Below are positions 39,177 through 57,580 of a stretch of 58,242 nt of DNA, one piece after another. The notes under the pieces are model-generated. The model was not told the DNA's origin and did not search any database. It was given only the letters and a program-made list of their open reading frames with translations. How positions within the stretch are numbered: position 1 is the first letter of the stretch; every line of letters starts with the position of its first letter. A program made the translations under genes and the position numbers. Where the stretch lies: contig CAYSID010000002.1 in the NCBI GenBank assembly GCA_964431075.1, forward strand, positions 1 to 58,242, read 5' to 3'. Origin of the DNA: an uncultured Gammaproteobacteria bacterium (lineage in GTDB: Bacteria; Patescibacteriota; Microgenomatia; JAMCZE01).

Positions 39177-39249
39177 TCCTCTGTAGCTCAGCTGGTAGAG
39201 CGGCTCCCTGTTAAGGAGAAGGTCCGAGGTTCGAGTCCTCGCGGAGGAG
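39177..39249 (+). tRNA. tRNA-Asn (anticodon GUU)
   Basis: TCCTCTG-TA-GCTC-AGCTGGTA-GAGC-G-GCTCC-CTGTTAA-GGAGA-AGGTC-CGAGG-TTCGAGT-CCTCG-CGGAGGA-G. It has the same UCCUCUG 5' end as E. coli tRNA-Asn. Confidence 0.9.
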
Positions 39250-39546
39250 CTGAATTGGTCTTAATCTGACCATGTTGGCGGTCTTTAAGGCATTAAATAT
39301 TGGTGTGGGCTTTGCTTCAACAATTACTTTGTTATCCACAACGAACGGGAATTCTGATAGATTATCGAAACAACCAAGAAAGTCAGGAAAATTTTTCTTT
39401 AATTCTTCTAGCTTTGTGTATTTTGATAAATCTGCCGTTGCTTCATCAACCCAAAATGCATCTACTTCTCCGTCTGAAAAAGACCCGTATTCCTCAAGTG
39501 ATAATAAGTTCGGAATACTATATGTTTTCCTTAGATTAGGTAACAT
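39211..39546 (-). CDS. hypothetical protein (first ORF of the A+T-rich island; 3' end overlaps tRNA-Asn antisense)
   Basis: 111-aa ORF with no motif recognised. The last 13 codons are antisense to the tRNA, so the true end or the reality of the gene is uncertain. Confidence 0.35.
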   Translation of the reverse strand: MLPNLRKTYSIPNLLSLEEYGSFSDGEVDAFWVDEATADLSKYTKLEELKKNFPDFLGCFDNLSEFPFVVDNKVIVEAKPTPIFNALKTANMVRLRPIQLLREDSNLGPSP

Positions 39547-39724
39547 ATTTAGAAACGCGGGTTTATCAAAAAGTAAAGCAAGTTCTTGATAGTTAATATC
39601 CTTACTTGCACGAATATCAATCTTTAATATCGAAGATGGGCTTTATCGTTTTTCTTAATTTTCATAATTCTCAATTTATATTCTACAATAAAACGCCAAT
39701 TGATGTATAATTAAGAATAATTGA

Positions 39725-39937
39725 TTGACTATGAAGAAAGACGAAGTATCGGAACTATTAACTTTAGAAGAAGCTGCTAAAAAATTAAAGGTCAGCGAGC
39801 AGACTTTAAGGCGTTGGGATAACAGCGGCCATTTTAAAGCGGTAAGAGTTGGCACAAGGCGAGGCCTGGGTGATCGAAGATATCGGGTTAAAGACATTGA
39901 AAATTATACTAAGCAAAAAAATACAAAAAAAAGATAA
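39725..39937 (+). CDS. MerR/excisionase-type helix-turn-helix DNA-binding protein
   Basis: 70 aa. LLTLEEAAKKLKVSEQTLRRWDNSGHFKAVRVG...RRYRVKDIENY is the HTH_17/MerR-excisionase pattern. Confidence 0.75.
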   Translation: MTMKKDEVSELLTLEEAAKKLKVSEQTLRRWDNSGHFKAVRVGTRRGLGDRRYRVKDIENYTKQKNTKKR

Positions 39938-39982
39938 TTTACTAACGAGGAAAATAGAAAATTAAGAAAATAAAAGAAAATT

Positions 39983-42205
39983 ATGACAAATCAAAATAAG
40001 GCTTCTTCGGAAGCAGATGCCAGAATTATTGTTGACCGACTGCTTCGGGAAGCGGGCTGGGATATTGAAGACAAAAATCAGGTAACCACCGAGGAATCGA
40101 TTAAAGACGGCAGAGCTGATTATTTACTTCTTGATAGCCGAAGCCGGCCCTTGGCTGTTGTAGAGACAAAAAGGTTTTCCAAAGACCCATATACTGCCAA
40201 AGAACAGGCTGAAAATTATGCTAAAGAACTACTGGCTCCCTTTATCTTCCTTTCCAATGGCACCGATACCTACTTTTGGGATTACAACAAAGCTGATGCC
40301 CGTTTAGTTGATTCTTTTTTCTCCCGTTTTGATTTGGAAAGAATTGCTACTTTAAGAAAGTATCAGAAACCGCTATCTACGATCCCTGTTCTGGATAAGT
40401 TTTTCTTTAAAGGAAATGAGATAACGGTTAGACCTTATCAAAAAGAAGCCCTGCAAACGATAGATAAAGCATTAGGGGAAAATAAACGTCGTTTGTTAGT
40501 CGAAATGGCAACAGGCACAGGCAAGACTTTAGTGGCCGCGATGATGATTAAGAGACTGTTTCAGGCAGGATTGGTAGAAAGGGTTTTGTTTTTAGTTGAT
40601 AGGATTGAACTTGCCAATCAAGCAAAAGAAACTTTCGACGACTATCTTTCTGAATATCCCTCAATTGTTTTATATGGCGGGAAAAGGAGTAAAGAAGGCC
40701 AGATTGTTATTGGCACGCTTCCCACAATCCAATCTCAAATAGACGCTTTTACCAGCGGTTATTTTGATTTGGTAGTTACTGATGAATGTCATCGGTCAAT
40801 TTACAGCGTCTATCGCTCACTCCTTACCCATTTTGATGCCATCCATGTTGGCTTAACTGCTACCCCCAGCAATCTTATCGACAGAAACACCTATGAGTTT
40901 TTTAACTGCTGGAATCCTTTAACCAGAAAGGGAGAACCAACTTTTATCTATGGCATAAGGAAAGGGATAAATGATGGTTATCTGGCTCCTTACAAGGTTT
41001 ATCACGCCAGAAGCAAGATCTCGCTGGAAGGCATCAATTGGCAAGGAGAAGATTACGAACCGCAAGATTTGGAAAGAACGATCACGGTTGAAGACAGAAA
41101 TAAATTGTTTGTTCAGGAGTTTAAGGAAAACGAAGAAAAAAGAGGCGGCGATCATCCCAGAAAAACAATTGTCTTTGCCATCACTAAAAAACATGCGGCT
41201 CAACTGGCAAGATTTTTCAATGAAATGTACCCCGAATACAAAGGTAAGTACGCCGAGATTATTACTACCGATACTTTTGATCCCCAAAGAGCCATTAAAC
41301 GCTTTAAAAAAGAACCTTTACCTGTAATTGCGGTTTCGGTGGCCATGCTTGATACCGGTTTTGATTATCCGGCAGTAGAAAACCTGATGATGTGTCGTCC
41401 TACCCGTTCTCCTACTTTCTACCAGCAAATGAGAGGTCGAGGTTCCCGGCTTTGCCCGCAAGTCGGTAAAAAAGAATTCCTTATTTATGATTTTGTGGGT
41501 AATGCCGAATACTTTAATGATGAGGGTTACGATCCATTTGAGCAAAAGAAAGTTGCTACCAGAATGAAAGTTGAGGAAGTTGAAAAGGAAGAAATAACAG
41601 AAGAACAAATACCGGAAGCTATTGTTAGGCAATTTGTTACTATCCCCTTGGGTCAAGCCCGTGATGAGTGGATAGAAAGAAGATATATCGAGTTTGGACC
41701 GGAAGGAGAAAAAGTTGATGCCAGAGAATACAAAGATAGATTTGCTGAAGAAGTTAAGAAATTGGCTGATACCAATGAGATTGTGATTAAGCTCAGGCAA
41801 AAACAGGATGTAACTGATGATGAAATTCAAGAATTAGGGCAACTTCTCAATCACCCGGAATTCTTTTTCAATGAGAACAATTTAAGGCAAGCCTATGACC
41901 AGCCAACAGGCAATTTAGTTGATTTTGTTAAAAGCGCTTTAGGAATGCATAAGTTCCCCACCAGAGAAGAAAGAGTTAGTAGCGCTTTTGATGCCTGGAT
42001 TATCCAAAAGAATTTTGCTCCTGAACAAGTGCGGGTACTAAGAATGCTTAAGAATCAGTTCTTGGCAGGAAGTAAGGCGGATATTTCAGACTTTAACCGA
42101 CCACCGATTTCTCAATATGGTGGCTTACAGTACGCCATCAAAACTTTTGGTGAGGATGGTTTAAAACAAGTTGTTGATGATTTACAACAAGGAGTATTCA
42201 AATGA
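39983..42205 (+). CDS. hsdR: type I restriction enzyme R subunit (short HsdR with EcoEI-R-like C-terminus)
   Basis: N-terminal PD-(D/E)XK (DGRADYLLL...LAVVETKR). SF2 helicase Walker A EMATGTGKT, DEAH-like VTDECHRS, motif VI QMRGRGSR. Helical C-terminal domain. Confidence 0.9.
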   Translation: MTNQNKASSEADARIIVDRLLREAGWDIEDKNQVTTEESIKDGRADYLLLDSRSRPLAVVETKRFSKDPYTAKEQAENYAKELLAPFIFLSNGTDTYFWDYNKADARLVDSFFSRFDLERIATLRKYQKPLSTIPVLDKFFFKGNEITVRPYQKEALQTIDKALGENKRRLLVEMATGTGKTLVAAMMIKRLFQAGLVERVLFLVDRIELANQAKETFDDYLSEYPSIVLYGGKRSKEGQIVIGTLPTIQSQIDAFTSGYFDLVVTDECHRSIYSVYRSLLTHFDAIHVGLTATPSNLIDRNTYEFFNCWNPLTRKGEPTFIYGIRKGINDGYLAPYKVYHARSKISLEGINWQGEDYEPQDLERTITVEDRNKLFVQEFKENEEKRGGDHPRKTIVFAITKKHAAQLARFFNEMYPEYKGKYAEIITTDTFDPQRAIKRFKKEPLPVIAVSVAMLDTGFDYPAVENLMMCRPTRSPTFYQQMRGRGSRLCPQVGKKEFLIYDFVGNAEYFNDEGYDPFEQKKVATRMKVEEVEKEEITEEQIPEAIVRQFVTIPLGQARDEWIERRYIEFGPEGEKVDAREYKDRFAEEVKKLADTNEIVIKLRQKQDVTDDEIQELGQLLNHPEFFFNENNLRQAYDQPTGNLVDFVKSALGMHKFPTREERVSSAFDAWIIQKNFAPEQVRVLRMLKNQFLAGSKADISDFNRPPISQYGGLQYAIKTFGEDGLKQVVDDLQQGVFK

Positions 42206-43716
42206 GTAAAGTTTCAAAACAGGAATTACAGTCAGTTATTAACCAGATTTGCAACAAACTCTGGGCAGCGGGATTAACTAACCCCATTACCTATATTGAA
42301 CAGATTTCCTATTTCTTCTTTTTAAAGATGCTTGAGGAATGGGATAATCAGAAAGCCAATGAATCTAGACTTACCGGGAATAAAAATGGGTATGAATCAA
42401 TCTTTGAAAAGGAAAATGAGAAGTTCCGCTGGAGTGAGTGGACACATATTGCTGACAATACCAGGATGTTTAAATTCGTCCGTGACGAAGTGTTCCCTTT
42501 TATGGCAAACCTGCCCGGAACAAATGAAAATATCAGAAGGTTTTTTGCAGACGCTAGGTTTCAGATCCCTGATGGCGTGGTGCTTCGGGACGTCGTTGAT
42601 AAGCTAAGAGATATTTCTTTTATTGAACTGGACGCTGATGTTAAAGGTGATTTGTATGAATATCTTTTAAACCAGTTAACTACTTCTGGTAAAGCCGGAC
42701 AATTTAGAACTCCCAGACATATTATTCGCACCATAGTTCAATTGGTTAACCCTCAAATTGGAGAAACTGTTTTAGATCCTGCTTGCGGTACTGGTGGCTT
42801 TTTACTTGGAGCTTTTGAATACATAAAAACTTGTAACTCTGATCCCAGCAACACAACCGAATATCAAAATGGCAACGGACAGACAGTAAAAAAAGGCCCT
42901 GGAGATAAACTTTCTCCAACACAATGGCAATTTATGCAAACAGATGCTTTAACCGGATTTGATGTTGATGCTTCCATGGTGAAGATTGCCACCATGAACT
43001 TGATTTTGCATGGCTTGGAAAAATCTCAAATTATCAGACGAGATTCAATTGCGGGCAGTCCTGATGATTGGGATGAGCGAGAATTTGATATTGTACTTTC
43101 CAATCCGCCCTTTGCAGGTACTATTAACAAGGAAAGAGTTAAAAAGAACCTTCCGGTTCAGGCTACAGACACAACGATCCTTTTCCTAGGATTAATGATT
43201 GAAGGATTAAGGCAAGGCGGTAGAGCGGGGGTAGTTGTTAACGAAGGAGTTTTGTTCAACCGCAATAAAGCCGCTAAAGAGTTAAGACGATATTTGATGG
43301 ACAGAAGGAATTTAGTGGCGGTTGTTTCTCTCCCCGGTGGTGTTTTTCAACCATATTCGGGTGTCAAAACCAGTGTTTTGTTTTTCAATAACGATGGCAA
43401 GAAAACAGAAAAGGTTTGGTTTTATGATGTCCGCTTTGATGGTTTTGAATTGGCTACCCAAAGAAGACCATCTCCCGATAAGAACGATTTACCGGATTTG
43501 ATTTCCAAATGGAAAGACAAATCGGATTCAGAAAGAAGCTGGTCAGCCACCACAAAACAAATAGAAGAAAACGACTTTATCCTTTCAGCCTCTGCATACA
43601 GACCGATTACTGAAGATGAAACCCAACACCGAGACCCAAAAGAGATATTTAAGGAAATTAAGGAGTTAAATAAGGAGTCTCAAGAACAGTTAAAGAAAAT
43701 TGAAGAATTTATATGA
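42202..43716 (+). CDS. hsdM: type I restriction-modification N6-adenine DNA methyltransferase subunit
   Basis: HsdM N-terminal domain (LWAAGLTNPITYIEQISYFFFLKML), AdoMet motif I DPACGTGGFL, catalytic motif IV NPPFAG. ATGA overlap with hsdR. Confidence 0.95.
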   Translation: MSKVSKQELQSVINQICNKLWAAGLTNPITYIEQISYFFFLKMLEEWDNQKANESRLTGNKNGYESIFEKENEKFRWSEWTHIADNTRMFKFVRDEVFPFMANLPGTNENIRRFFADARFQIPDGVVLRDVVDKLRDISFIELDADVKGDLYEYLLNQLTTSGKAGQFRTPRHIIRTIVQLVNPQIGETVLDPACGTGGFLLGAFEYIKTCNSDPSNTTEYQNGNGQTVKKGPGDKLSPTQWQFMQTDALTGFDVDASMVKIATMNLILHGLEKSQIIRRDSIAGSPDDWDEREFDIVLSNPPFAGTINKERVKKNLPVQATDTTILFLGLMIEGLRQGGRAGVVVNEGVLFNRNKAAKELRRYLMDRRNLVAVVSLPGGVFQPYSGVKTSVLFFNNDGKKTEKVWFYDVRFDGFELATQRRPSPDKNDLPDLISKWKDKSDSERSWSATTKQIEENDFILSASAYRPITEDETQHRDPKEIFKEIKELNKESQEQLKKIEEFI

Positions 43717-44408
43717 GCTTAAATATTAATTTGATTGATACAATTTTGGCAATTGGTTCCGTCTCTGGATTATTAGTTTTACCTTATACGATTGTTCAAG
43801 CTTCCAAGAAAAGACCTCGGTTAAAATTTGACTTTTCAGGAATGAGTGGAAGCGGAGTAAAAAAAAGTGATGCCGTTGGTGAATATTACCGTTTTGAATT
43901 TTCTGGCACGATCAAAAATCGTTCCACAGAGACAAACTCAATTTCAAAGATTTATCTCGTTGTTTGGGCAGATAATAAAAAAAGAAATTCTGCCCTGAGG
44001 CTTGGTTTTGGCGGGGTTTTATTAGATTCAAGTAAAAATGTATTATCTTTACCTTTAGAATTGCCATCAAGAACAGGTAAAAAGCTGGAAATAATTTTTG
44101 AAATTCCAGTTACGGGCACATCAGACGAAAGACTACTTAAAGAGTTTATTCCTGTCGGTAATAGTGGTCGTTTTTATTTACCTAAGCACAAATATGAGCT
44201 TTGTTTTGAGGACACTGATGAAAACTTCTTTGATCAACAAGGTAGATTAAGAAATTTAAATGAAATTAACCTAAGATGGACTCTCCCCAACACAATAAAA
44301 GAATTACAAAAAGGCAATATTGCTCCGTTTTTAAAACATATGTTTCAGATACAAAAATCAAGAATATTATTTTCTATAAAACGAATTAGTTATCAGATAG
44401 GATTATGA
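43713..44408 (+). CDS. unknown membrane-anchored protein X1, inserted between hsdM and hsdS
   Basis: 231 aa with ATGA overlaps at both ends. N-terminal TM (IDTILAIGSVSGLLVLPYTIV), then a beta-rich domain (YYRFEFSGTIKNRSTETNSISKIYLVVW...LELPSRTGKKLEIIFEIP...YELCFEDTDENFF). No known family recognised. Confidence 0.7.
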   Translation: MSLNINLIDTILAIGSVSGLLVLPYTIVQASKKRPRLKFDFSGMSGSGVKKSDAVGEYYRFEFSGTIKNRSTETNSISKIYLVVWADNKKRNSALRLGFGGVLLDSSKNVLSLPLELPSRTGKKLEIIFEIPVTGTSDERLLKEFIPVGNSGRFYLPKHKYELCFEDTDENFFDQQGRLRNLNEINLRWTLPNTIKELQKGNIAPFLKHMFQIQKSRILFSIKRISYQIGL

Positions 44409-45562
44409 ATACTTGGCAAACTAAAAAATTAGGAGACATTACCGAAATTAATGGAGGAGGAACACCACCCACAAGCAAAACTGAATATTTCAGTGGCGAT
44501 ATACCATGGTTTACTCCTTCTGAAATTACTTCAGGTACAGTTTCAGTACTGAATAACAGTCAAAGACAAATTACAGAAGATGCGATGCGGTTTACAAAAG
44601 TAGCCGAACAAGGAACAGTTTTATTATCAAGCAGGGCAACGATTGGCAATGTTGGGATAGTATCTGATAGGTCAACTTATAACCAAGGAATAAAAGGATT
44701 AACCCCAAAAAAAGAATTAAGCCATTGGTATCTTGCATATTGGTTGTTAGCGAATAAAAAGAGGTTGGAAAGTCAATCTCATGGAACAACATTTAAAGAA
44801 TTGAGTACAACTGCCTTAAAAAAGTTTGATATTTCAGTTCCACCGCTTTCCATTCAACAACAAATAGTTGAGAAAATAAACGCAATCAGAAAATTGCAGG
44901 AATTAAATAATAAGGAAATTGAAAAAGCGGTGGAATTGTTTAAAACACAGCTTTCTAATTGTTTTAAATGGCAAGAGCAATGGAAAAAGATTAAGCTGGC
45001 AGAGATATGTGATGTGAGAGATGGTACGCATGACAGTCCAAAATACCAACCTTCTGGTATTCCACTCATAACATCAAAGAACTTGAAAGAAGATTTAATC
45101 GATTTTACAAATATCAATTACATTTCTGAAAAAGATCACCAACAAATAGTTAAAAGATCGTTTGTAGAGAATGGAGATATTCTTTTTGGGATGATTGGGA
45201 CAATAGGTAATCCCGTTATTGTTGATACTGAAAGAACGTTCAGCATTAAAAATGTCGGGTTAATAAAGTTCCCAAACAGAAAAATAGTTAACAATTTGTT
45301 TGTGAAGTATTTCCTTCAAAGTCCGTCGTTAGAAATAGAAATAAAAAGACTGTCGCGTGGAGGAACACAAAAATTTGTTTCGCTAGGAAATTTAAGAAAT
45401 CTTCTTGTGCCATTACCATCTCTAAAAGAACAGGAAAAAATTGCTATGGAGTTAAACAATATTAGACTTTTCAATTCCAAACTTAATTTAAAAGGGATTA
45501 AATTATCAGAACTTTTTGAAAGTGCTCTAAATAAATTTATGAAGAGAGAACTGATCAATTAA
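44405..45562 (+). CDS. hsdS: type I restriction-modification specificity subunit
   Basis: Two target-recognition domains (GGGTPPTSKTEYFSGDIPWFTPSEI and RDGTHDSPKYQPSGIPLITSKNL). They are separated and followed by the conserved helices PPLSIQQQIVEKI and PLPSLKEQEKIAMEL. Confidence 0.93.
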   Translation: MNTWQTKKLGDITEINGGGTPPTSKTEYFSGDIPWFTPSEITSGTVSVLNNSQRQITEDAMRFTKVAEQGTVLLSSRATIGNVGIVSDRSTYNQGIKGLTPKKELSHWYLAYWLLANKKRLESQSHGTTFKELSTTALKKFDISVPPLSIQQQIVEKINAIRKLQELNNKEIEKAVELFKTQLSNCFKWQEQWKKIKLAEICDVRDGTHDSPKYQPSGIPLITSKNLKEDLIDFTNINYISEKDHQQIVKRSFVENGDILFGMIGTIGNPVIVDTERTFSIKNVGLIKFPNRKIVNNLFVKYFLQSPSLEIEIKRLSRGGTQKFVSLGNLRNLLVPLPSLKEQEKIAMELNNIRLFNSKLNLKGIKLSELFESALNKFMKRELIN

Positions 45563-45565
45563 CCT

Positions 45566-46231
45566 ATGAATTATTGGCAAAGTTTACTCGATTTATCACA
45601 AGCAGTATTTTTCCCCCAGATATTGAACATTGTCAATGTTGTTTTGATATTGCTTACAGTCCTGGTGACTTATTTGTCATGGCATACTGCTAAAAGAGCG
45701 AACGAATTACAGTTACTTCCTCTTCTTGCTGTCTATTTTAGGGGTAAAGCCTTGAAAGATAGAACGATTAGGATACGAAATATTGGCAAGAGTCCAGCTT
45801 ACGATATAAAAATAGAGTCCTATCTGAACATTATTAAGGATATACAGCATGTGTGGCGATTAGATTTGTCTTTGAGTGGTACAAACGTCTTGGTGCCCGA
45901 CGAGGAGAAAGATTTAAAGATGAGGGCAACGGACAACGGGAAAGAAGCCGATATGTCAGAATTTATGGTTTTTCATCTTGACCCAGAAGAAGAACATAAG
46001 AGAGAAAGAGTTGGCCTATTGCTAACGTTTAGAAATGCGGAGGGAAATTATTACTATTCTGAGGTGGAAACTGGCGCAGGTGGTTTGTTCATAAAGCCTG
46101 CAAGAAAATATAACCTTTGGGGTAAGGCGTATGTAGGCTATAGACAATATTCGGAGAAAGTTTTATTGAAACTGTATGAATTTAAATGGAAATTTACTAA
46201 GCCTTATATTAAACAGCCAAAGAAGGCTTGA
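45566..46231 (+). CDS. unknown membrane-anchored protein X2
   Basis: 221 aa, starts 3 nt after the hsdS stop. N-terminal TM (ILNIVNVVLILLTVLVTYL), then RTIRIRNIGKSPAYDIKIES...VLVPDEEKDLKM...VGLLLTFRNAEGNYYYSEVE. The motif is shared with X3 and, more loosely, X1. Confidence 0.7.
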   Translation: MNYWQSLLDLSQAVFFPQILNIVNVVLILLTVLVTYLSWHTAKRANELQLLPLLAVYFRGKALKDRTIRIRNIGKSPAYDIKIESYLNIIKDIQHVWRLDLSLSGTNVLVPDEEKDLKMRATDNGKEADMSEFMVFHLDPEEEHKRERVGLLLTFRNAEGNYYYSEVETGAGGLFIKPARKYNLWGKAYVGYRQYSEKVLLKLYEFKWKFTKPYIKQPKKA

Positions 46232-46243
46232 TAAAAAATAATT

Positions 46244-47548
46244 ATGAAAGCACAGGATAAACCAAAATATGTTCAAGAGGCACGAGAGTTATATGGTTCA
46301 CTTGATGTAGATGCGTTGATTGATGACCCAAATAATTTAAAAACACTTGAGAAAATTAGTCGCCTGATAGCTATTTTTACTAATTTTTCCTATAACGACG
46401 GACAAGACTTGAAAGAATTACTATGTGAGTTCCAAAAATGGGCGAGGCGAAGTACGAGCATCGGTACTATAAGAAATAGGGCTACCGATATGCTCCAGTT
46501 TATTATTCAAAAAATAGAAGAAATGGATATTTATGTGATTGAAGAACCAATTAGGAAAAAACAAGAAAAAATTGTAAAAAGCTTGAAGGATGAAAACTTA
46601 TGGATGCAATCATCCCTAGAAGGTAAGGATTTACATATTTTGGTTGGAGAGAGAAATGCTAAAGCGGGTGAGCACGTCCATTTAATCAGCGATTCAGAAA
46701 CTGGCGAAATTAGAGTTGATGCTGACGATAAAACCCCCGATGAGCTTATAGAAAGAGTCGTTAGTATTACTACAAAACACGGCTCAACAATAGGGATTTC
46801 ACAATACGGAGTAAAAACAACAATGGAGTTTATCAATAAAGATACAACAGAAGACAAAGACCCTCCGATTTTATATGCCACTGGAATAAGACGAAGTGGC
46901 GGACCTCAAGGCCATTTTGATTACATAACGATTAAAAATGTTGGGAAAAATATCGCATTAGATATTCATTGGGGTATAAGGGCATTTGCCTATGAATGGC
47001 GACCATCAGAAGAGCCTTTTGAATTAGAACCAAATAAGGAAAAAGAAGTTGTTTTTCCCACTTCTTCCGAAAGAGTATTTAAAGAAATTATTCCAGAACT
47101 AAATGTAATAATGGAATATAAGGATGTAAATAACAAATCTTACTTTACCAGAAGGGAATTAAATCAACTAAAAGTTCCTTCGGGGGCATTTTATGAATTG
47201 AAAGCCGACACTTTCCACCCTCCTTCTATACTAATTGATGATGGATTACGATTGATTTCTGAACCTGTTCGCAATGGCGATAGAACTGAGGCAACTTTTA
47301 AGATTAATACCGAAGAAGGGGGTAAAGAAGTAAAGATCGGCTTAAGTGGCAGTCTTATCGCTGTTTTTGGTTTTGAGAATGACGGGTTAGTCAAACAAGC
47401 AATATTAGAATTAGCTCATAGATTGATTAGAAAAATGGTTAAATCGAAGACCCTATCTGACTATTGCTTTACTACTCACGATTTACCCGAACACCATATA
47501 AGTGGATTTGAAGCCTATGTACAATTAAGGAATAACATTACTTATTAA
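46244..47548 (+). CDS. unknown 434-aa protein X3
   Basis: Helical N-terminus. The central block FDYITIKNVGKNIALDIHWGI...ELEPNKEKEVVF...LNVIMEYKDVNNKSYFTRRE parallels X2. No catalytic motif recognised. Confidence 0.7.
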   Translation: MKAQDKPKYVQEARELYGSLDVDALIDDPNNLKTLEKISRLIAIFTNFSYNDGQDLKELLCEFQKWARRSTSIGTIRNRATDMLQFIIQKIEEMDIYVIEEPIRKKQEKIVKSLKDENLWMQSSLEGKDLHILVGERNAKAGEHVHLISDSETGEIRVDADDKTPDELIERVVSITTKHGSTIGISQYGVKTTMEFINKDTTEDKDPPILYATGIRRSGGPQGHFDYITIKNVGKNIALDIHWGIRAFAYEWRPSEEPFELEPNKEKEVVFPTSSERVFKEIIPELNVIMEYKDVNNKSYFTRRELNQLKVPSGAFYELKADTFHPPSILIDDGLRLISEPVRNGDRTEATFKINTEEGGKEVKIGLSGSLIAVFGFENDGLVKQAILELAHRLIRKMVKSKTLSDYCFTTHDLPEHHISGFEAYVQLRNNITY

Positions 47549-47549
47549 A

Positions 47550-48236
47550 ATGAATATGACTGATAACATTATTAAACTTTCGCCATCAACAATCAGTCTA
47601 TTTATGGAATGCCCGAGGTGTTTTTGGTTGCAGTTTAACAAAAATATCCATCGGCCAAGAGGGATATTTCCCTCACTTCCTGGAGGAATGGATGGAGTGA
47701 TTAAAAAATACTACGACACATATCGAAGACAAGGCAAACTACCACCAGAAGTTGATGGAAAATTAACTGGCAAACTTTTTGCAGATGAGAAATTATTAAA
47801 ATCGTGGCAAAGCAACTGGGAGGGGATTAAATATTTTGACAAAGAATTAAACGCTCTAATGAAAGGTGTCTTAGATGATTGTTTGGTTGATGGTGATACA
47901 TATATTCCCCTTGATTACAAAACGAGGGGTTATGATTTAAAAGAAGATTCTACTTCCTATTATCAGCACCAGCTTGATATTTACTGTTACCTGCTTGTAA
48001 AAAACGGTTATAAAGTTGCCAATTACGCCTATTTGGTTTATTACTTCCCTAAATTAGTAAAAGATAACGGGCAGGTCGAGTTTAATGTTGAACCCAAAAA
48101 AGTAGACACTGATATTAAACATGCCGAGCAATTATTTAAAGATGCTGTTACCTGTTTAAGAGGTCCAGAACCCAAAAGGCACAGCGACTCCTCGTGTGAG
48201 TTCTGTAATTGGGGTTTTGAAGCCTTTGGAGAATAA
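47550..48236 (+). CDS. Cas4-like PD-(D/E)XK nuclease with Cys cluster
   Basis: 228 aa. LSPSTISLFMECPRCFWL (N-terminal Cys), GVLDDCLV...YIPLDYKT (D...DxK), QHQLDIYCYLL (QxxxY), and C-terminal C-x16-CEFC (putative Fe-S ligands). Confidence 0.8.
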   Translation: MNMTDNIIKLSPSTISLFMECPRCFWLQFNKNIHRPRGIFPSLPGGMDGVIKKYYDTYRRQGKLPPEVDGKLTGKLFADEKLLKSWQSNWEGIKYFDKELNALMKGVLDDCLVDGDTYIPLDYKTRGYDLKEDSTSYYQHQLDIYCYLLVKNGYKVANYAYLVYYFPKLVKDNGQVEFNVEPKKVDTDIKHAEQLFKDAVTCLRGPEPKRHSDSSCEFCNWGFEAFGE

Positions 48237-48240
48237 AAAT

Positions 48241-50643
48241 ATGGATATACAGAAAATAAAAATTAAAGGTGATTATAAATTAGCAGATATTGTTCATGAT
48301 ATTGAAAAGGGAATCTTGCGGATTCCTCAATTTCAACGGGAATTTGTTTGGGATAAGCCCAGGGTAATAAAACTACTCGAAAGTATTTATCTTGAGTATC
48401 CGATAGGCTCTTTCTTCTTTTGAGATGCACCCAGAAAATACTATGATTTCTACCGGGATATTGCGGAGTTGGGACTGCCCAAACCGGACAAGTATGAGAA
48501 GATCGTTTTTATCCTTGATGGTCAGCAACGGCTTACTTCTCTTTATGTTACTGTTAAAGGTTTAACTTTATATGGCCGGGATTATAAAAAAATTTGTTTT
48601 GATTTAGATGAAAAAGTCTTTGTTGATCGGGCTCCTGATAATCAACGATTTGTTTCTTTAAGTGACCTATTATCCAGTGAACGTTACAGCGAAGTTTATG
48701 AAGGCTTAACTCCCGCAAGACGCAAGGCTGTTTATGAATGTTTGCAGCGATTTAACAATTATCCCTTTTCTGCGATTGATGTTCGGGATAAAGAACTGGA
48801 TGAAGTCTGTGATATTTTTGAACGGATTAATCAGGGTGGACAAAGGTTAAACCTTTTTGATTTGATTTCTGCCAGCACCTGGACGCCTGATTTTGATTTG
48901 AGATTAGCGGTTAAAGGAGAAAACGAGAGATTAAAGACAAAAGGATTTGGGGAAATTGACAATGAAGTTTATCTTCAGGCACTTTCTCTTATTGCCAAAG
49001 GCTCTTGTACCAGGCCGGTCCAACTGCAGCTTCGAGCTGAGGATGTGACTAAGTTTTGGCAGGACACAATTGATTCAATCTCTTTGGCAATAGATTATCT
49101 TAAAAGCTATTTAGGTGTAGTTAACTCCGTTTTTATTCCTTACCGAAGCATGATTGCTCTAGTAGCCTATCTTTTTTATAAAGCCAAGGGCAGGAGTTTA
49201 GACCATGAACAATCAGAGCTTTTAGCCCAGTGGTTTTGGCAAACTACTTTTTCTGAGAGGTACAGCGCCTCAATTTTAACTTTGATGACTGAGGATAAGA
49301 AACTGATGGATAAGATAGCTTCGGGGACAAGCGTTGGTATTAAATACCTCTTTGAGCTGGATATTGATACCCTGATTCAAATCCGCATGTACCGAAAGTC
49401 AGCTATCAAAAATGGTGTACTTTGTTTACTGGTTAAAAGAGAGCCTAAACATTTTAAAAACAACATTACCTTACCGCTTAAAGATGGCTATTATTCAGAC
49501 TTTAATAGTTCTGAAAAGCATCATATTTTCCCTAAATCCATTATCCAAAAAAATTATCCGATGATCATGGTTCACTCGCTTCCCAACTTCTGCTTTATCC
49601 CGGCAGAATTAAACAAAGAAATTTCCAACAAAAAGCCCAGCAAATATTTTGAAGAATACCAAGAAAGCAATCCTGATTTTCTTGATGCTTTAAAAACTCA
49701 CCTAATCAAATATGACGAGTCAATAAAACAGGACGATTATATGTCTTTTTTGGCTTCAAGGGCTGCCTTGATACTGGAGGAAATAACCAGAGCCACAGGC
49801 TCTAAAATTGGCCGGGTAGTAGCTGATAATGTTAACAAAGCCATTGATGATATTGAAAAAAGATTACGAGATTTTATTGATAAAAAGATGTTGGTTAAAA
49901 ATCCTGACTATTGGAAAAAATCTATGCCAAGCGATATTGTTGGCGTGGTTCGTCAAAGAGTAAATGAGTATCTATCCAAAGACCCTTCCAAGACGATTAA
50001 TGACTTTGGTTCAAGAGAGCTTCTAGATTTTATGGACATTATGGATTATTCCAAAGTCGTTCTTTTCAACTGGGATGTCTTTGGCTCTATTTTTAGATCA
50101 AAAGCGGAGACCGAGAAACGATTTTTAAACCTTAAGGAGTTTAGAAATGCAGTTAAACACGGGAGGGATGAAATTGTGCCTTTCATTCAAAAAGAGGGAG
50201 AAGCGGCATTGGAGTGGCTTTCTATTATTTTAGAGGAAGCGGAGAAAAATCCAGTAAGGTCTGTTAAGCCTGCCGAAAGCGAAGAAGAAACCATTAGTCG
50301 GGTTAAGAATGACTTTGTACAGAAAGCCGTTAGGCTTATATCGGAATGGATTGAGAAAGAATATTCTGATGGCAAATTAACGATAAAAAGGGGCAATGCT
50401 GGTTCGCACCGAAGCATAATGCAAGGCAAAAAGCTTATTCTCTTCTACTACTTTGCTGGCAATTGGGTTTATGGAGAACTACAGGCGACCACTCCTGATG
50501 AGCTTAAAATATTACAGGACAAGCTGTCTAAACCCGAATCAGTACTTGATAGAAAAAGTAAATATGGGCAGGTAAGATTCCATATGATTAACGAAGACGA
50601 TTTAGAGTTAGTCAAGGATATTGTAAAAAATAGAGTTAAATAA
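48241..50643 (+). pseudogene. GmrSD-like DUF262 + DUF1524 + HEPN fusion gene interrupted by one in-frame TGA (48421-48423)
   Basis: Track ORFs 48196..48423 and 48469..50643 are in the same frame. The read-through sequence is ...IPQFQREFVWDKPRVIKLLESIYLEYPIGSFFF*DAPRKYY...ILDGQQRLTSLY (DUF262/ParB-like). SSEKHHIFPKS...NFCFIPAELN is DUF1524 His-Me-like. EFRNAVKHGR is HEPN Rx4H (50143-50160). The TGA sits where this family normally has Trp. Confidence 0.75.
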
Positions 50644-50752
50644 ATATGAACAAACCAAAATTAAACGCTAAATGGCATTTAACAAACAAGATTTTCTGTT
50701 ACTATTATCAATAGCTGAAATTATTTTTTCAGCATAGTGAGGAGGTGAAATA

Positions 50753-51232
50753 ATGAAAAAGAATCTTCTTATCCCTGTTGTTGCTGTTGTTGGGCTAGTC
50801 GTTGTGGTCGGGATTTATTTGGTTTCTCAAGGATCCAAACAAACACAACCGTCATCAGAAACTGTCACGCGGGAACAGACAACGAAAAAAGACACCATTA
50901 CGAATAAGGCCGGATGTACGGTTGGTACAACCAAAACGGTGGTCGGTCTAAAATATCAAGTTACCGGACAAGAAACATATACCATCCAAGGCAAATCCTA
51001 TGATCTGTGTTGCTGGGAGACCGGCGAAGGCACGAGGCAGAAAAAAATCTGCAGTGATATCGAATCCGGGCCGGTAGGCTACAATTACGGTGTTCTTTTT
51101 GAGAACAATAAGAATACCGGTAGCCTTTACAAGTCAATGGAAACATACCGGGACGGTAACAACGTTTGCCAGCAATTTTATGAGGCAGATGGATCTGCCG
51201 GTCCGTTAAATTGCAAAGAAAGGTTAAATTGA
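50753..51232 (+). CDS. secreted Cys-containing hypothetical protein
   Basis: 159 aa. Strong RBS GAGGAGGTGA, N-terminal signal/TM, six Cys in the mature part. Confidence 0.6.
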   Translation: MKKNLLIPVVAVVGLVVVVGIYLVSQGSKQTQPSSETVTREQTTKKDTITNKAGCTVGTTKTVVGLKYQVTGQETYTIQGKSYDLCCWETGEGTRQKKICSDIESGPVGYNYGVLFENNKNTGSLYKSMETYRDGNNVCQQFYEADGSAGPLNCKERLN

Positions 51233-51481: not shown

Positions 51482-53197
51482 ATGAATCTGCCCGTGGCAA
51501 ATAATGACGAGGAAATCAGGGCTTTAATTAGTGAATCCAAACTTCTTAGTAAGGAAGAGCTTAAAGAGGTTGAAGAGGTTGTTTCCAAATACAGAGTTCC
51601 CCTCCATGACGCTTTGATTGAACGGGACCCAAGTTTTGATAAAAAAATCGGTCAGGAAATGGCAAAGAAATTTAATGTCCCGTTTATTTCCCTTATCGAC
51701 ACGTCAATTTCCGAAGAAACCTTTTTTACCATCCCGGAAAGTTTTGCCGCCAGAAGAAAAGTAATTGTTTTTGACCGAAAAAAGACGGAACTTTCTTTGG
51801 CCATGGCTGACCCCTTGGATAAAGAAACCGTGGAGAAGATTGCTTGGAAAACCGGACTTAAAGTTGACGTTTTTTACGCCACCCCGATTGATATTGAAAA
51901 TACTTTAAAAATCTATAAACAGGATTTGCAAAAAGTTGTTGACGCCCTTTTGCGGGAGGAATACCGTCCCGTCTCCGCCGTTTTGGAGGAAGCGGCCATG
52001 GATGCTCCGGTGGTTAAAATTGTGGATGCGGTTATTAATTCCGCGTACAAGGAAAAAGCCTCGGATATTCATATCGAGGTGGAAGAGAAAAGGTCATTGA
52101 TCAGATTCCGGATTGACGGCATCCTTCATGATATTTTGCACCTGCCAAAGGCGCTTCACGACCGGGTGATAACCAGAATAAAAGTTCTGTCCAATCTGCG
52201 CACTGATGAACATTTGGCGGCCCAGGACGGTAAAATGCGAATAGTTGTGGGTGAGGAAAACCTTGATATCCGTGTTTCCATTTTGCCGATAATTGAAGGA
52301 GAAAAAGCTGTCTTACGGCTACTTTCTTCCAAGAATAAGGATTTCTCCCTGACAGATTTGGGGATGACCCGAAAGGATTTGGAAAAAATAAACCTGGCTT
52401 TTTCCAAATCTTATGGCATGATCCTTTCAACCGGACCCACCGGATCAGGAAAAACTACCTCCATTTATTCAATACTGAAAATTTTAAATATCCGGGAACG
52501 AAACATTACCACTATTGAGGATCCGGTGGAATACCGGATTTTGGGAGCCAATCAAGTTCAAGTCAACACCAAGACTAACCTGACTTTTGCCAATGGACTG
52601 CGGTCAATTTTACGGCAGGACCCCAACATCATTTTTGTCGGGGAAATAAGAGACAATGAAACAGCCTCGATTGCCGTTAATGCCGCTTTAACCGGCCATC
52701 TGGTTTTTTCGACCCTGCACACCAACGACGCGGCCACGGCCATTCCCAGGCTTTCAGATATGAAGGTAGAGCCTTTCCTTGTCGCTTCGACGGTCAACGT
52801 GATTATTGCCCAGCGGCTAGTGCGGAAGGTTTGCCAGTTTTGTAAAAACCCCACTATTGTTTTACGGGACAGTTTGTTAACAAATATCAATGATCCAAAA
52901 CTGCTGGATAAATTTTTTCCTATCGATAAGGATGGACAGGCGACGGTCTACGAAGGCAAGGGTTGTAAGCAATGTCATTTCACCGGTTATTCCGGAAGGA
53001 TCGGGGTTTTTGAAGTTTTAGAGATGACAAAAAGAATTCGCGAGTTGGTGGTTAAAAAAGCCGATGCAGATGAAATTATGGCCGCCGCCGTGGAAGAAGG
53101 GATGACAACAATGCTTGTTGACGGCCTATTCAAAATCTCACAGGGTTTAACAACTTTAGAGGAAGTGCTTCGGGCGGTTAAAACGGAGTCAAACTGA
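51482..53197 (+). CDS. pilB: type IV pilus assembly / type II secretion ATPase (GspE/PilB family)
   Basis: N-terminal T2SSE_N domain, Walker A GPTGSGKTT, Asp box, Walker B IIFVGEIRD, His box TGHLVFSTLHTND, tetracysteine CQFC...CKQC. Confidence 0.93.
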   Translation: MNLPVANNDEEIRALISESKLLSKEELKEVEEVVSKYRVPLHDALIERDPSFDKKIGQEMAKKFNVPFISLIDTSISEETFFTIPESFAARRKVIVFDRKKTELSLAMADPLDKETVEKIAWKTGLKVDVFYATPIDIENTLKIYKQDLQKVVDALLREEYRPVSAVLEEAAMDAPVVKIVDAVINSAYKEKASDIHIEVEEKRSLIRFRIDGILHDILHLPKALHDRVITRIKVLSNLRTDEHLAAQDGKMRIVVGEENLDIRVSILPIIEGEKAVLRLLSSKNKDFSLTDLGMTRKDLEKINLAFSKSYGMILSTGPTGSGKTTSIYSILKILNIRERNITTIEDPVEYRILGANQVQVNTKTNLTFANGLRSILRQDPNIIFVGEIRDNETASIAVNAALTGHLVFSTLHTNDAATAIPRLSDMKVEPFLVASTVNVIIAQRLVRKVCQFCKNPTIVLRDSLLTNINDPKLLDKFFPIDKDGQATVYEGKGCKQCHFTGYSGRIGVFEVLEMTKRIRELVVKKADADEIMAAAVEEGMTTMLVDGLFKISQGLTTLEEVLRAVKTESN

Positions 53198-53198
53198 T

Positions 53199-54254
53199 AT
53201 GGCCAAGGGGTCAAAAATTACTCTTTCACCCAACGATAAAATCGGCCTGCTTAGCAACTTAGCGACGATGCTTGGAGCCGGAATTCCCATCATGGAGGCC
53301 GTCGAGTCGTTACTGGAAGACGCTAAGGGTAACGCCAGAAAAGTCTTGGAAAATTTACGCGACGATCTGGCCCAAGGGAAACGGATTTCCGCTTCTTTCG
53401 CCACGTTCCCCAACGTTTTTGATAAAGTAACAACCAACGTTATCAAAGCCTCAGAGGAAGCGGGAACCCTGGAAACCGCTTTGCGGGATATTAAAGACAA
53501 TATCCTAAAAGAGATGGAATTCGGGGATAAAATAAAATCAGCCATGGTTTATCCGGCCTTGATTTTGGTCGTCTTTCTTGGCGTCATGGGAGTAATGTTG
53601 ACAATTGTGGTCCCAAAAATCGCCGTGGTATTTACTAAACTCAAAGTCTCTTTACCCCTGCCCACTCAAATAATGATTTTTCTCTCTGATCTGATTATGA
53701 AGCAGACAGCGTATTTTGCCGGAGGATTAGTTTTGTTAATTATGCTGTTTATTGTTTTGTTTAAAACCCAAAAACCGGCGATGATGCGGATTATTTATTC
53801 TTTGCCCATTATTTCCCGGCTGGCAAGAGAAATTGATCTGGCAAGATTCTCCCGGACACTTTACCTTTTATTAAATGCCGGACTGACGATCACTTCGGCT
53901 TTAGAGTTGGCGCAGGAAGTGGTGATGCGTCAGAAAACCAGAGCCATAATCGCCCAGTCGCGGGAGATGGTTTTGTCCGGGAAGAAACTGGCTGAAGGTA
54001 TGAAGAAAAATAAAGGGGAAGTGCCGTCAATTATGGTCAAATTGATTGAAGTTGGGGAAAAATCCGGATCGCTGGATAAGGCCATGCTGGAGATTTCTGA
54101 ATATCTTGACTATCAAATTTCCGGGACGCTGAAAACCTTAACCGTTTTAATGGAGCCTTTGATGTTAATTCTTGTTGGTGTCTCCGTTGGTGGCATGATG
54201 TTGGCGATCATCGCCCCCATGTATGGATTAATCGGTCAAATCGGGAATAGATAA
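53199..54254 (+). CDS. pilC: type II secretion system F family platform protein (PilC-like)
   Basis: 351 aa. Two T2SSF repeats (LATMLGAGIPIMEAVE and LLLNAGLTITSALE), 3 TM segments. Confidence 0.9.
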   Translation: MAKGSKITLSPNDKIGLLSNLATMLGAGIPIMEAVESLLEDAKGNARKVLENLRDDLAQGKRISASFATFPNVFDKVTTNVIKASEEAGTLETALRDIKDNILKEMEFGDKIKSAMVYPALILVVFLGVMGVMLTIVVPKIAVVFTKLKVSLPLPTQIMIFLSDLIMKQTAYFAGGLVLLIMLFIVLFKTQKPAMMRIIYSLPIISRLAREIDLARFSRTLYLLLNAGLTITSALELAQEVVMRQKTRAIIAQSREMVLSGKKLAEGMKKNKGEVPSIMVKLIEVGEKSGSLDKAMLEISEYLDYQISGTLKTLTVLMEPLMLILVGVSVGGMMLAIIAPMYGLIGQIGNR

Positions 54255-54263
54255 CTATCTCCA

Positions 54264-54292
54264 GTAACATTGCGAGCGAAGCGAAGCAATCC
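54264..54292 (+). repeat. short repeat family, copy D
   Basis: GTAACATTGCGAGCGAAGCGAAGCAATCC, between the pilC stop and the stop of the convergent small ORF. Confidence 0.85.
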
Positions 54293-54564
54293 TATCCTCT
54301 ACCAACCATTTCCATCAATACAATGTTTTGAGCAGGAGTCAATGGACTATCTCCACTTATTTGCTCAGGCGTCAATTCTGGCAATCCCAGTCCTTCTAAA
54401 ACTCCATTAAGCATCCCCAGCCGACCCTCTCGTAAAGCTTCTGGCGATGGTGACTTGACGCCGTAAGATTTTGCAACAAGTTCGGTTATAAGATCACACA
54501 AAGGCTCTTTGGGTTTACTCGCCATATTTTGGGCTATTCTCTCTCTCTCTGCACTATAAGTCAA
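54292..54564 (-). CDS. hypothetical protein (90 aa)
   Basis: ORF only. No motif recognised. Its stop abuts repeat copy D. Confidence 0.4.
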   Translation of the reverse strand: MTYSAERERIAQNMASKPKEPLCDLITELVAKSYGVKSPSPEALREGRLGMLNGVLEGLGLPELTPEQISGDSPLTPAQNIVLMEMVGRG

Positions 54565-54597
54565 TACCCGAAAATTATAGGCCTATCAACCTAATTT

Positions 54598-54621
54598 CGC
54601 CTGCCTGCCGGCAGGCAGGCG
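54598..54621. repeat. perfect 24-nt GC-rich palindrome CGCCTGCCTGCC|GGCAGGCAGGCG
   Basis: Read directly from the sequence. It lies in the divergent intergenic region upstream of the pilin gene set. Confidence 0.9.
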
Positions 54622-54685
54622 CCTGCGTTTGTAGGTGGAAAATTGTTTTTATTATTTTAGTTGCAAAAAGTGCTACACTTTTAGG

Positions 54686-55162
54686 GTGAGAAAAAAAGGA
54701 TTCACGTTGGTTGAGATGCTGGTGGTGATGGGGATTTCCGCGATTTTAGTGGCTTTTTCCACCGTTAATATCTTGGGGCTTCAGCAAAGAACACAATTGA
54801 GTTCAAAACTGGACACCCTGGTTACCGATTTTCGGGCGCAGCAAGTCAGGGCGATGATCGGAGAGGCGGATGACAGCGGGAATATTGTTGCCAGAGGAAT
54901 TCATTTTGATAGCAACCGTTATGTCCTTTACCGCGGATCGGTTTACAATCCGTCCGATCCTTACAATTTCACCGTTAATCTTGAGGGAGAGCGGTTTGTC
55001 AATATTAATTTCCCCAACGCTAATCTGGTTTTTTCTCCGGGCTCCGGCGAGCCGGTTAATTTTTCTCCCGGGGAGGACAGTGTCACTCTCCAACAGGAGT
55101 CCGGAGGAATCCAGAAAACCGTTACTGTTAATAAGTATGGGACAATTATTTCGGTTGATTAG
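54686..55162 (+). CDS. type IV pilin / pseudopilin-like protein
   Basis: VRKKG|FTLVEMLVVMGISAILVAF is a class III (prepilin) signal with Glu at +5. I prefer the GTG at 54686 to the track start at 54635. Confidence 0.8.
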   Translation: MRKKGFTLVEMLVVMGISAILVAFSTVNILGLQQRTQLSSKLDTLVTDFRAQQVRAMIGEADDSGNIVARGIHFDSNRYVLYRGSVYNPSDPYNFTVNLEGERFVNINFPNANLVFSPGSGEPVNFSPGEDSVTLQQESGGIQKTVTVNKYGTIISVD

Positions 55163-57131: not shown

Positions 57132-57580
57132 AAAAACGGGGTTTTACTTTACCGGAATTGCTGGTGTATTGCGGTTTGTTGGCTATACTTCTGGTGGTTA
57201 TTACCAATGTTTTTATGTCCATTCTTAATTTGCAACTGGAAACGGAGACTGTTTCCGGACAGGCCCAGGACGGGCAATACATTTTGTCAAGGTTAAGTTA
57301 TGATTTACGACGGGCTTCATCGGTGACTTCGCCCGCGTTGGGCGGTACAAGCGCGAGTTTGAGTGTCATCATCGACGGCGTCTCTTATCAATACGGGCTT
57401 GACGGCAACAACAATTTAGTGGTCGCGGGACAAGGACAACTGAACAGTTTTTTAACAACGGTTTCCGATCTAAGTTTTACCCATTTAGGAACGGTTGGTG
57501 GAGAGGAAGATACCATCCAGATCGGTTTCAATCTTGGGGACAGGTTTTTTCAGACCACTATTGGTTTGAGGTCCAACTGA
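57128..57580 (+). CDS. pseudopilin / minor pilin-like protein
   Basis: MKKRG|FTLPELLVYCGLLAILLVVI prepilin signal. ATGA overlap with the upstream gene. Confidence 0.8.
   Translation: MKKRGFTLPELLVYCGLLAILLVVITNVFMSILNLQLETETVSGQAQDGQYILSRLSYDLRRASSVTSPALGGTSASLSVIIDGVSYQYGLDGNNNLVVAGQGQLNSFLTTVSDLSFTHLGTVGGEEDTIQIGFNLGDRFFQTTIGLRSN

Follow-up and report, generated by a model that had tools for sequence, protein, structure and literature searches.

X1, a guest gene in the hsdM–hsdS slot of a type I restriction–modification operon, defines a previously unannotated protein family

A type I restriction–modification (R-M) operon in a 58,242-nucleotide (nt) stretch of contig CAYSID010000002.1 (GenBank assembly GCA_964431075.1; the window) carries, between hsdM and hsdS, a gene for a small protein that we call X1. 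Here we show that X1 is a guest in a cassette slot of this operon, which lies in a low-GC defence island beside tRNA-Asn in a genome of candidate phyla radiation (CPR) type (Patescibacteria-like), and that it defines a previously unannotated protein family. X1 is co-transcribed and translationally coupled with the restriction enzyme, yet it is not a subunit of the type I enzyme, and comparison with related operons indicates that it moves independently of that enzyme. It is a genuine gene that is selectively maintained under strong purifying selection. We propose that X1, a mobile, R-M-embedded defence-island cassette, probably acts at the membrane on its own.

X1 is a guest in the slot between hsdM and hsdS

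Both ends of X1 overlap their neighbours. The start codon lies in tatATGAgct (ATGA at 43713–43716), where the ATG of X1 shares bases with the TGA of hsdM, and in attATGAat (ATGA at 44405–44408) the ATG of hsdS shares bases with the TGA of X1. These junctions, read directly, agree with the first-pass annotation, which had described a 231-residue open reading frame (ORF) wedged between hsdM and hsdS by an ATGA overlap on each side; its naming of the flanking genes also holds, as their products match Pfam HsdM_N and N6_Mtase on one side and Methylase_S on the other. No recognisable Shine–Dalgarno-like sequence precedes the X1 start, in contrast to hsdM, which has AAGGAG, and this lack of a ribosome-binding site fits translation of X1 through coupling to hsdM. 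One study (PMC3510504) describes the hsdM and hsdS of EcoKI as overlapping and translationally coupled genes. The further claim that X1 synthesis is stoichiometrically tied to the methyltransferase survives in part: co-expression and coupling stand, but the stoichiometry was overstated, because overlaps do not show it.

To place X1 in context we compared related operons (L and P numbers denote loci and proteins, respectively). Close homologues of X1 (70–92% identical) all lie between hsdM and hsdS in the same type of operon, and loci with this arrangement are L001/L018/L023, L010, L013, L015 and L022. The extra guests vary among L001, L010, L013, L015 and L022; they include an 80-residue protein with two transmembrane (TM) helices, a 116/124-residue family also with two TM helices, a 212-residue protein with C-terminal TM helices and a DUF5677 protein. 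Two sister operons, whose hsdR and hsdM are no more distant from those of the window than in these loci, have other proteins in the slot. In L052, whose hsdR and hsdM are 89.5% and 85.3% identical to those of the window, the slot holds an unrelated protein of 215 residues that combines a TM helix and a KRP motif with a beta-rich region; in L054 (90.8% and 80.2%) it holds an unrelated, soluble protein of 234 residues. The possibility that these two guests are divergent forms of X1 was excluded by hmmsearch with the hidden Markov model (HMM) of the family.

A fourth type I subunit would be co-inherited with hsdR, hsdM and hsdS, and in related operons this fails for X1. Because sister operons with 80–91% identical hsdR and hsdM carry unrelated guests, and because the pattern is reversed in L013, where X1 is 71% identical but hsdR and hsdM are only 53–54% identical, X1 is not a core subunit. 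The slot comparison thus supports the earlier description of X1 as a guest gene inside the hsd operon. It also changes the meaning of the overlaps: 4-nt overlaps are found at nearly every slot junction, and since guests in these operons are joined in this way whatever their identity, the ATGA coupling belongs to the slot and is no evidence for a specific partnership of X1 with HsdM or HsdS.

The segment that includes the guest differs from the rest of the operon in sequence divergence and composition. Among these operons, hsdS is 29–52% identical, whereas hsdR and hsdM reach 80–90%. In the window, X1 and hsdS form the lowest-GC part of the operon; their GC content at third codon positions is 23–26%, much below the 36% of hsdR and hsdM, which suggests that the guest and hsdS were exchanged together as a unit.

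Across the loci examined, the hsdM–hsdS slot is a hot spot for unrelated guests, of which there are at least seven; five are small predicted membrane proteins, among which the 116/124-residue family with two TM helices recurs (positions in Table 1).

The X1 family, its architecture and its neighbourhoods

A search of a 5.8-billion-protein collection returned 19 homologues of X1 (E up to 0.01), and a profile search of 1.84 billion cluster representatives gave 115 matches, 54 of them under 1e-30. The family is nevertheless rare, with members in 4 of 185,579 species-representative genomes and at 30 metagenome loci; for the metagenome scan we used a 14-sequence subset of the alignment, the broad 45-sequence alignment being too divergent. 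The recovered loci span 25–68% GC, and the family reaches beyond Patescibacteria. Among six operon copies of X1, pN is 0.06–0.23 against a pS of 0.46–0.89, and dN/dS is 0.04–0.08 where dS is unsaturated. With homologues and a dN/dS of at most 0.08, X1 has the coding-type conservation that the first-pass annotation had expected of it.

No described family accounts for X1. It matches no family in Pfam (E up to 0.1), NCBIfam or PADLOC-DB 2.0.0 (5027 models, including HEC and PDC), and nothing in PHROG below E 0.28; the family profile retrieved no solved relative from PDB sequences. A phage origin was considered and rejected, as there is no relative in IMG/VR contigs and no tblastn match in 50,697 phage genomes, and so was a plasmid origin, as PLSDB plasmids hold no match to four different family members. 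X1 likewise does not belong with phage-encoded superinfection-exclusion membrane proteins, given no IMG/VR, phage-genome or PHROG match.

We then surveyed the 19 non-redundant loci with annotated neighbours. Nine adjoin restriction enzymes: six of type I; L025, where the X1 relative lies 102 nt behind a 1648-residue type ISP enzyme; and L004 and L044, where it follows a ResIII/type III-like restriction subunit. In L044 a Cas4-like gene, 48% identical to that of L001, lies two genes downstream of the relative, and a PDB search with the ResIII partner at that locus identified nothing. Three loci adjoin other defence-linked genes, with the X1 relative preceding a SIR2_2 gene (L028), following a Hypoth_Ymh gene and preceding a Y1 transposase (L007), or following a DUF4238 gene (L016). 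A further five adjoin integrases or recombinases (L019, L027, L039, L043 and L049), and two have housekeeping neighbours only (L021 and L026). Among the genes nearby, PADLOC models match, for instance, enzymes of types III, IIG and IV, SIR2 and several PDC candidates. The family as a whole has no conserved partner gene at the surveyed loci. This count, which is descriptive and has no background rate, supports a strong association of the family both with loci for restriction and defence and with the neighbourhoods of mobile elements, in line with the R-M or defence surroundings that a defence role for X1 had led the first-pass annotation to anticipate for its homologues.

The AlphaFold2 (AF2) model of X1, built from an 18-sequence alignment (pLDDT 79.5, pTM 0.71), consists of an N-terminal helix (residues 5–32), an immunoglobulin (Ig)-like beta-sandwich (37–174) and three C-terminal helices (182–189, 191–199 and 204–228). 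The last of these is amphipathic and basic, with five K/R, no D/E and a hydrophobic moment of 0.80. The N-terminal helix is rich in Gly and Ser, and its residues G15, S16, G19 and Y25 are conserved. The basic juxtamembrane stretch SKKRPRLK and the beta-rich domain that had been read from the translation are both borne out, the former by the conservation of R34–P35, with R34 invariant among close homologues, and the latter by the modelled sandwich. Conserved family motifs in the sandwich are KNxS...N, GTxD and YELxFEDxxGNxFDxxG, and LRWTLPN is conserved as well; there are no catalytic-type invariant residues in the family, and the conserved positions look structural. Foldseek searches with the model returned no enzyme-like fold; the matches are generic Ig-like sandwiches such as ApaG/DUF525, PDIP38, TRAP subunits, archaeal pilins, the lumenal domain of TMEM106B, LEA14 and DUF4352, and for those named here TM-scores are about 0.3–0.5 and identities 7–15%. 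The best structural matches include the ApaG entries 1xq4, 1xvs and 1tza and DUF4352 phage proteins; X1 has no HMM match to these families, and the resemblance, which is at the level of the general fold, is functionally uninformative.

Whether X1 is anchored in the membrane depends on its N-terminal helix. The single TM helix that had been proposed is present in the model as a hydrophobic helix, but it is only marginally hydrophobic (KD19 1.95; simple-sum Hessa dGapp +2.3 kcal/mol), so that the description of X1 as membrane-anchored is probable rather than secure. The median dGapp is +3.4 in 61 short-form relatives and −2.05 in a set of long relatives. As X1 has a hydrophobic N-terminal helix and no enzymatic domain, a membrane-level role is reasonable.

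Short and long forms differ around this helix. Short forms have 0–3 K/R before it and mostly 3–8 after it, whereas the long relatives (330–450 residues), in which a soluble N-terminal domain of 130–270 residues comes first, have K/R ahead of a very hydrophobic TM helix and few behind. From these opposite charge distributions (P0001–P0128), the short forms, X1 included, are predicted to be N-out/C-in with a cytoplasmic sandwich, and the long relatives are predicted to hold the sandwich in the opposite orientation. The long forms place at least six unrelated N-terminal domains on a constant TM–sandwich module. These N-terminal domains have no Pfam or PADLOC match, and nine long-form relatives matched no family in PADLOC-DB 2.0.0.

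One long relative, P0102, connects the family to X3, a modular protein that is encoded in the same operon, beyond hsdS. Over its first 100 residues P0102 shares 42% identity (E 2e-22) with the X3 N-domain (residues 1–100), and the remainder is a TM helix and an X1-like sandwich. Elsewhere the X3 N-domain occurs in fusions with TIR plus the X3 C-domain (P0192), with Mrr plus the X3 C-domain (P0209) and, in P0250, with a PLD-like domain matching PDC-S05; the X3 C-domain is also found behind AbiEii-type nucleotidyltransferase and AAA_14/DUF4143 domains. Such fusions form a modular pattern that is typical of conflict systems, and the TM–sandwich module stands in the position of the TIR, Mrr and PLD-like effector domains, which favours an effector-type role. 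Proteins P0249–P0253 were at one stage candidates for long-form X1 relatives and were rejected, because their sequences hold the X3 N-domain and the PLD-like PDC-S05 domain.

In L055 (1–5170), P0102 closes a cluster of a RadC-JAB/C5-methyltransferase fusion (M.HpaII-like), R.HpaII, Vsr and a 404-residue protein, and it is joined to the gene for the last by a 4-nt overlap. The 404-residue protein has no family match and no PDB match; within it, KARNYGDVAHP resembles the Rx6H motif of HEPN proteins on inspection by eye only.

The remainder of the defence island

The island (39251–51232) has 37.1% GC, against 42.5% and 46.2% in its flanks, and tRNA-Asn(GTT) forms its left boundary (Table 1). Nine genes, from the small HTH_17/MerR-like gene (39725) to the GmrSD-like gene (end 50643), look like one transcription unit, because they are joined by 4-nt overlaps, including one at the hsdR/hsdM junction, or separated by gaps of 1–12 nt, the spacing found downstream of hsdS. 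The HTH_17/MerR-like gene also heads the sister operons L052, L053 and L054, and its product may serve these R-M islands as their own regulator. In L049 this gene stands directly 5′ of a truncated X1 homologue.

Table 1 Positions of X1, its parts and its neighbours in the window, and of slot guests in other loci
Feature	Position	Strand	Description
X1	43713..44408	+	231-residue ORF, unannotated family
X1 residues 5–32	43725..43808	+	Hydrophobic N-terminal helix, marginal TM segment (AF2)
X1 residues 31–38	43803..43826	+	Basic stretch SKKRPRLK right behind the helix
X1 residues 37–174	43821..44234	+	Ig-like beta-sandwich (AF2)
X1 residues 182–228	44256..44396	+	C-terminal helices, pLDDT 84–92 (AF2)
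tRNA-Asn(GTT)	39177..39250	+	ARAGORN; left boundary of low-GC island
HTH_17/MerR-like gene	39725..39937	+	Small gene; Pfam HTH_17, 2.2e-11; operon head
hsdR	39983..42205	+	740 residues; Pfam ResIII + EcoEI_R_C; PADLOC REase_I 1.8e-88
hsdM	42202..43716	+	504 residues; Pfam HsdM_N + N6_Mtase 2.5e-58; PADLOC MTase_I 2.7e-154
hsdS	44405..45562	+	385 residues, two target-recognition domains; Pfam Methylase_S 3e-49 over two stretches
X2	45566..46231	+	221 residues; second unannotated guest, directly after hsdS
X3	46244..47548	+	434 residues; modular protein
PD-(D/E)XK Cas4-like nuclease gene	47550..48236	+	Pfam PDDEXK_1 3.8e-11; PADLOC Cas4
GmrSD-like (DUF262) type IV restriction gene	48241..50643	+	Pfam GmrSD_N; in-frame TGA 48421–48423
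Slot guest in L001	7400–7997
Slot guest in L010	8746–9345
Slot guest in L013	4504–4878
Slot guest in L015	3087–3437
Slot guest in L022	6783–7421
Slot guest in L052	7174–7821
Slot guest in L054	6803–7507

On the far side of hsdS lies X2, so that hsdS is flanked on both sides by genes for architecturally alike, predicted membrane proteins. The AF2 model of X2 (pLDDT 82.3) has a helix at residues 16–50, strands at 54–181 and a helix at 184–210, an arrangement like that of X1, with a clear TM helix (dGapp −0.83), an Ig-like sandwich and a long C-terminal helix. Its Foldseek matches are generic sandwiches, several of them common to X1: ApaA 1xq4, pilin 8fk7 and the KirBac cytoplasmic domain. A comparison of X2 with the X1 family by hhalign gave a probability of 2% and thus no detectable homology, and the idea that X1, X2 and X3 are paralogues was dropped after BLASTP and profile–profile comparisons proved not significant. 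X2 has 36 homologues. It also follows hsdS in L052, where a gene for an OLD-family nuclease then takes the place of X3. X3, too, has the look of a separate, undescribed defence protein, and in L053 its gene comes after those of a type III-like R-M system and an AAA_15/21 ATPase.

The Cas4-like nuclease gene has homologues in L001 (10826–11635), L022 (10911–11600) and L044 (4652–5407), and a PDDEXK_1 gene is also present in L052 (11456–12214). In these islands it usually stands immediately before the GmrSD-like gene, and no CRISPR array and no cas1 or cas2 was seen near this recurrent gene. In the window, the TGA within the GmrSD-like gene replaces a conserved Trp that is present in L052 and L001 (GSFFF*DAPRKYY, compared with GSFFFWDAPRKYY in the near-identical homologue of L052) and splits the frame into ORFs at 48196/48241–48423 and 48469–50643; it is either a TGG-to-TGA nonsense mutation or a sequencing error. 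Directly 3′ of the island, at 51482–57580, are type IV pilus genes that encode a PilB-like T2SSE ATPase, a PilC-like T2SSF protein and a prepilin with an N-methylation motif, and these mark the return to the core genome.

Candidate roles of X1

The role that we favour, at somewhat short of even chances, is that of an autonomous accessory anti-phage module acting at the inner membrane face, for which X1 is a candidate. In this proposal the beta-sandwich would be a binding or sensing domain on the cytoplasmic side, whereas membrane association and oligomerisation would fall to two helices, the N-terminal one, with its motif for small-residue packing (G15-S16-x-x-G19), and the basic, amphipathic one at the C terminus. 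The outcome would be exclusion or an abortive-infection-type perturbation of the membrane that complements restriction. In the long relatives the same TM-plus-sandwich module stays constant beneath variable N-terminal domains.

Embedding within defence operons provides one line of support. A previous survey described 3,231 embedded families and found that genes inside type I R-M, BREX and DISARM operons are often defence genes (bioRxiv 10.1101/2024.01.29.577857). Judged by this guilt-by-embedding approach (Payne et al. 2024), X1 has the in-operon placement, in the window as well as in L001, L010, L013, L015 and L022, and its homologues recur in other defence settings (L025, L004, L044, L028, L007 and L055, with no background rate for such recurrence), but it has no HEC or PDC model match. 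TgvAB (PMC11411939) is an example of the independent defence cassettes that are found within multi-gene R-M, BREX or Hma operons. The island in the window fits the embedding pattern of TgvAB and HEC and also has a GmrSD-like gene and the modular X3; those systems, however, are GmrSD-type nucleases with shown activity, whereas X1 has no enzymatic domain and matches no PADLOC model. X1 is therefore a candidate membrane-type variant of the established embedded defence genes and no new category.

For the membrane itself, CBASS Cap15 offers a comparison, as a membrane effector that combines TM helices with a small beta domain and perturbs membranes through oligomerisation. X1 shares the general architecture of a hydrophobic helix followed by a non-enzymatic, beta-rich domain and could plausibly work in a similar way, a likeness that is an analogy only: X1 has one marginal helix where Cap15 has two clear TM helices, no cyclase or other signal generator is present in the X1 operon or the examined homologue loci, no Cap15-like effector model in PADLOC matches X1, and no such chain is among the Foldseek PDB matches listed.

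Several observations weigh against an autonomous membrane module. The marginal helix of the short forms makes constitutive insertion uncertain, and the opposite topologies predicted for short and long forms are awkward for any single mechanism; the sandwich could be a sensor and not the effector part. X1 matches no known family model of defence proteins. No recognisable defence gene lies around L011, L021, L026, L037 or L038, and the context count is descriptive, with no genome-wide background rate and many contigs too short to judge.

Some of these points would suit a protein that has no part in defence. X1 could be mobile-element cargo or a hitch-hiker, settling in those slots of R-M operons that tolerate insertions and recombine readily, for example a membrane protein for the element's own maintenance or one with a niche envelope function. 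The five contexts that adjoin integrases or recombinases would fit, as would those with only unknown or housekeeping genes, and so would the failure to match a defence model; the divergence of hsdS relative to hsdR and hsdM marks the hsdS regions as recombination hot spots. We nevertheless consider such carriage unlikely, because X1 is under strong purifying selection, has been inserted repeatedly within operons and with in-frame coupling, which is not random placement, is associated as a family with four kinds of restriction system and is absent from phage and plasmid collections.

A broader reading, to which we assign a still lower probability, would unite X1, X2 and the other small membrane guests in an undescribed class of restriction-coupled membrane modules. 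These would be co-translated with the enzyme, would position ATP-dependent restriction enzymes at the site of DNA entry or provide a second-line membrane defence, and would be reused in longer proteins as the constant partner of variable sensor or adaptor domains.

By analogy with PrrC and RloC, the first-pass annotation had suggested that X1 could be an effector guarded by the R-M complex. X1 would then be held inactive on HsdM2S1 or R2M2S1 until a phage anti-restriction protein disables the enzyme and frees X1 as a membrane-damaging abortive-infection effector. X1, too, is housed in a type I hsd locus, with its neighbours on the same strand and 4-nt overlaps that couple it at both junctions; PrrC, however, lies between hsdS and hsdR and not, like X1, between hsdM and hsdS. 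An ABC-ATPase-like part and a C-terminal tRNA nuclease characterise PrrC and RloC, features that X1, a helix and an Ig-like sandwich, does not have: no nucleoside triphosphatase or anticodon-nuclease domain in X1 was matched in Pfam, NCBIfam or PADLOC or is present in the AF2 model. PrrC, as an accessory gene inside a type I R-M operon that is dispensable for restriction and modification, does set a precedent for hsd-embedded guards (PMC12707154), and X1, being non-enzymatic with one hydrophobic and one basic amphipathic helix, would suit membrane action and associates repeatedly with ATP-dependent restriction enzymes of types I, ISP and III. Our comparisons do not support the guarded-effector proposal, which we regard as distinctly improbable, because relatives of X1 occur outside hsd loci, some without hsd genes and some without any nearby R-M gene, and because unrelated guests fill the slot in near-identical operons. 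Moreover, the partner enzymes, where there are any, are built in unrelated ways (types I, ISP, III and II), which makes a conserved binding interface on X1 unlikely.

Much the same low likelihood applies to a membrane tether or adaptor, in which X1 would have no effector activity of its own and would improve restriction by concentrating translocating restriction enzymes at the inner membrane where DNA enters. Type I enzymes such as EcoKI are reportedly membrane-associated, as Holubova and colleagues are said to have described (BBRC 2000 and 2004). The non-enzymatic sandwich is a typical protein-binding fold, its predicted orientation is cytoplasmic and near the membrane, and X1 lies directly after or inside the genes for three types of ATP-dependent restriction enzyme. 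The independence of X1 from hsd counts here too, however; guests of the same slot are heterogeneous and some are soluble, and the long forms bring their own variable N-terminal domains, like self-contained conflict proteins.

Least probable is a membrane sensor that detects an envelope or membrane event such as phage DNA entry and passes the signal to a distinct effector whose gene is close by, such as an X3-type protein, the Cas4-like nuclease or the 404-residue partner in L055. Against it, X1 itself has no N-domain, no partner gene is conserved family-wide, the short forms predict a cytoplasmic sandwich and the 404-residue protein has no recognised family. In its favour, the long forms are predicted to have the sandwich outside the cell and the variable domain inside, translation of P0102 is coupled to that of the 404-residue protein with its by-eye Rx6H motif, and the window, L001, L022 and L044 each hold the Cas4-like gene together with X1 or a homologue. 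The fusion pattern would also fit such a role if the X3 N-domain that P0102 shares with the effector-bearing proteins were a homotypic adaptor.

Accessory genes inside R-M operons have been fruitful in yielding new anti-phage systems, and X1 is one of thousands of embedded candidates, from the poorly explored genomes of CPR bacteria. LdgA and DdgA are Patescibacteria-specific defence proteins (PMC12366544), whereas the X1 family is not confined to that group. With X1, an unannotated family travels with four different kinds of restriction system, and the variable hsdM–hsdS slot, filled mostly by small membrane proteins, is a ready place to mine further candidates. Were X1 to act at the membrane, it would connect the restriction of DNA with a layer of defence at the envelope, and it would enlarge the very small repertoire of defence functions known so far in CPR/Patescibacteria.

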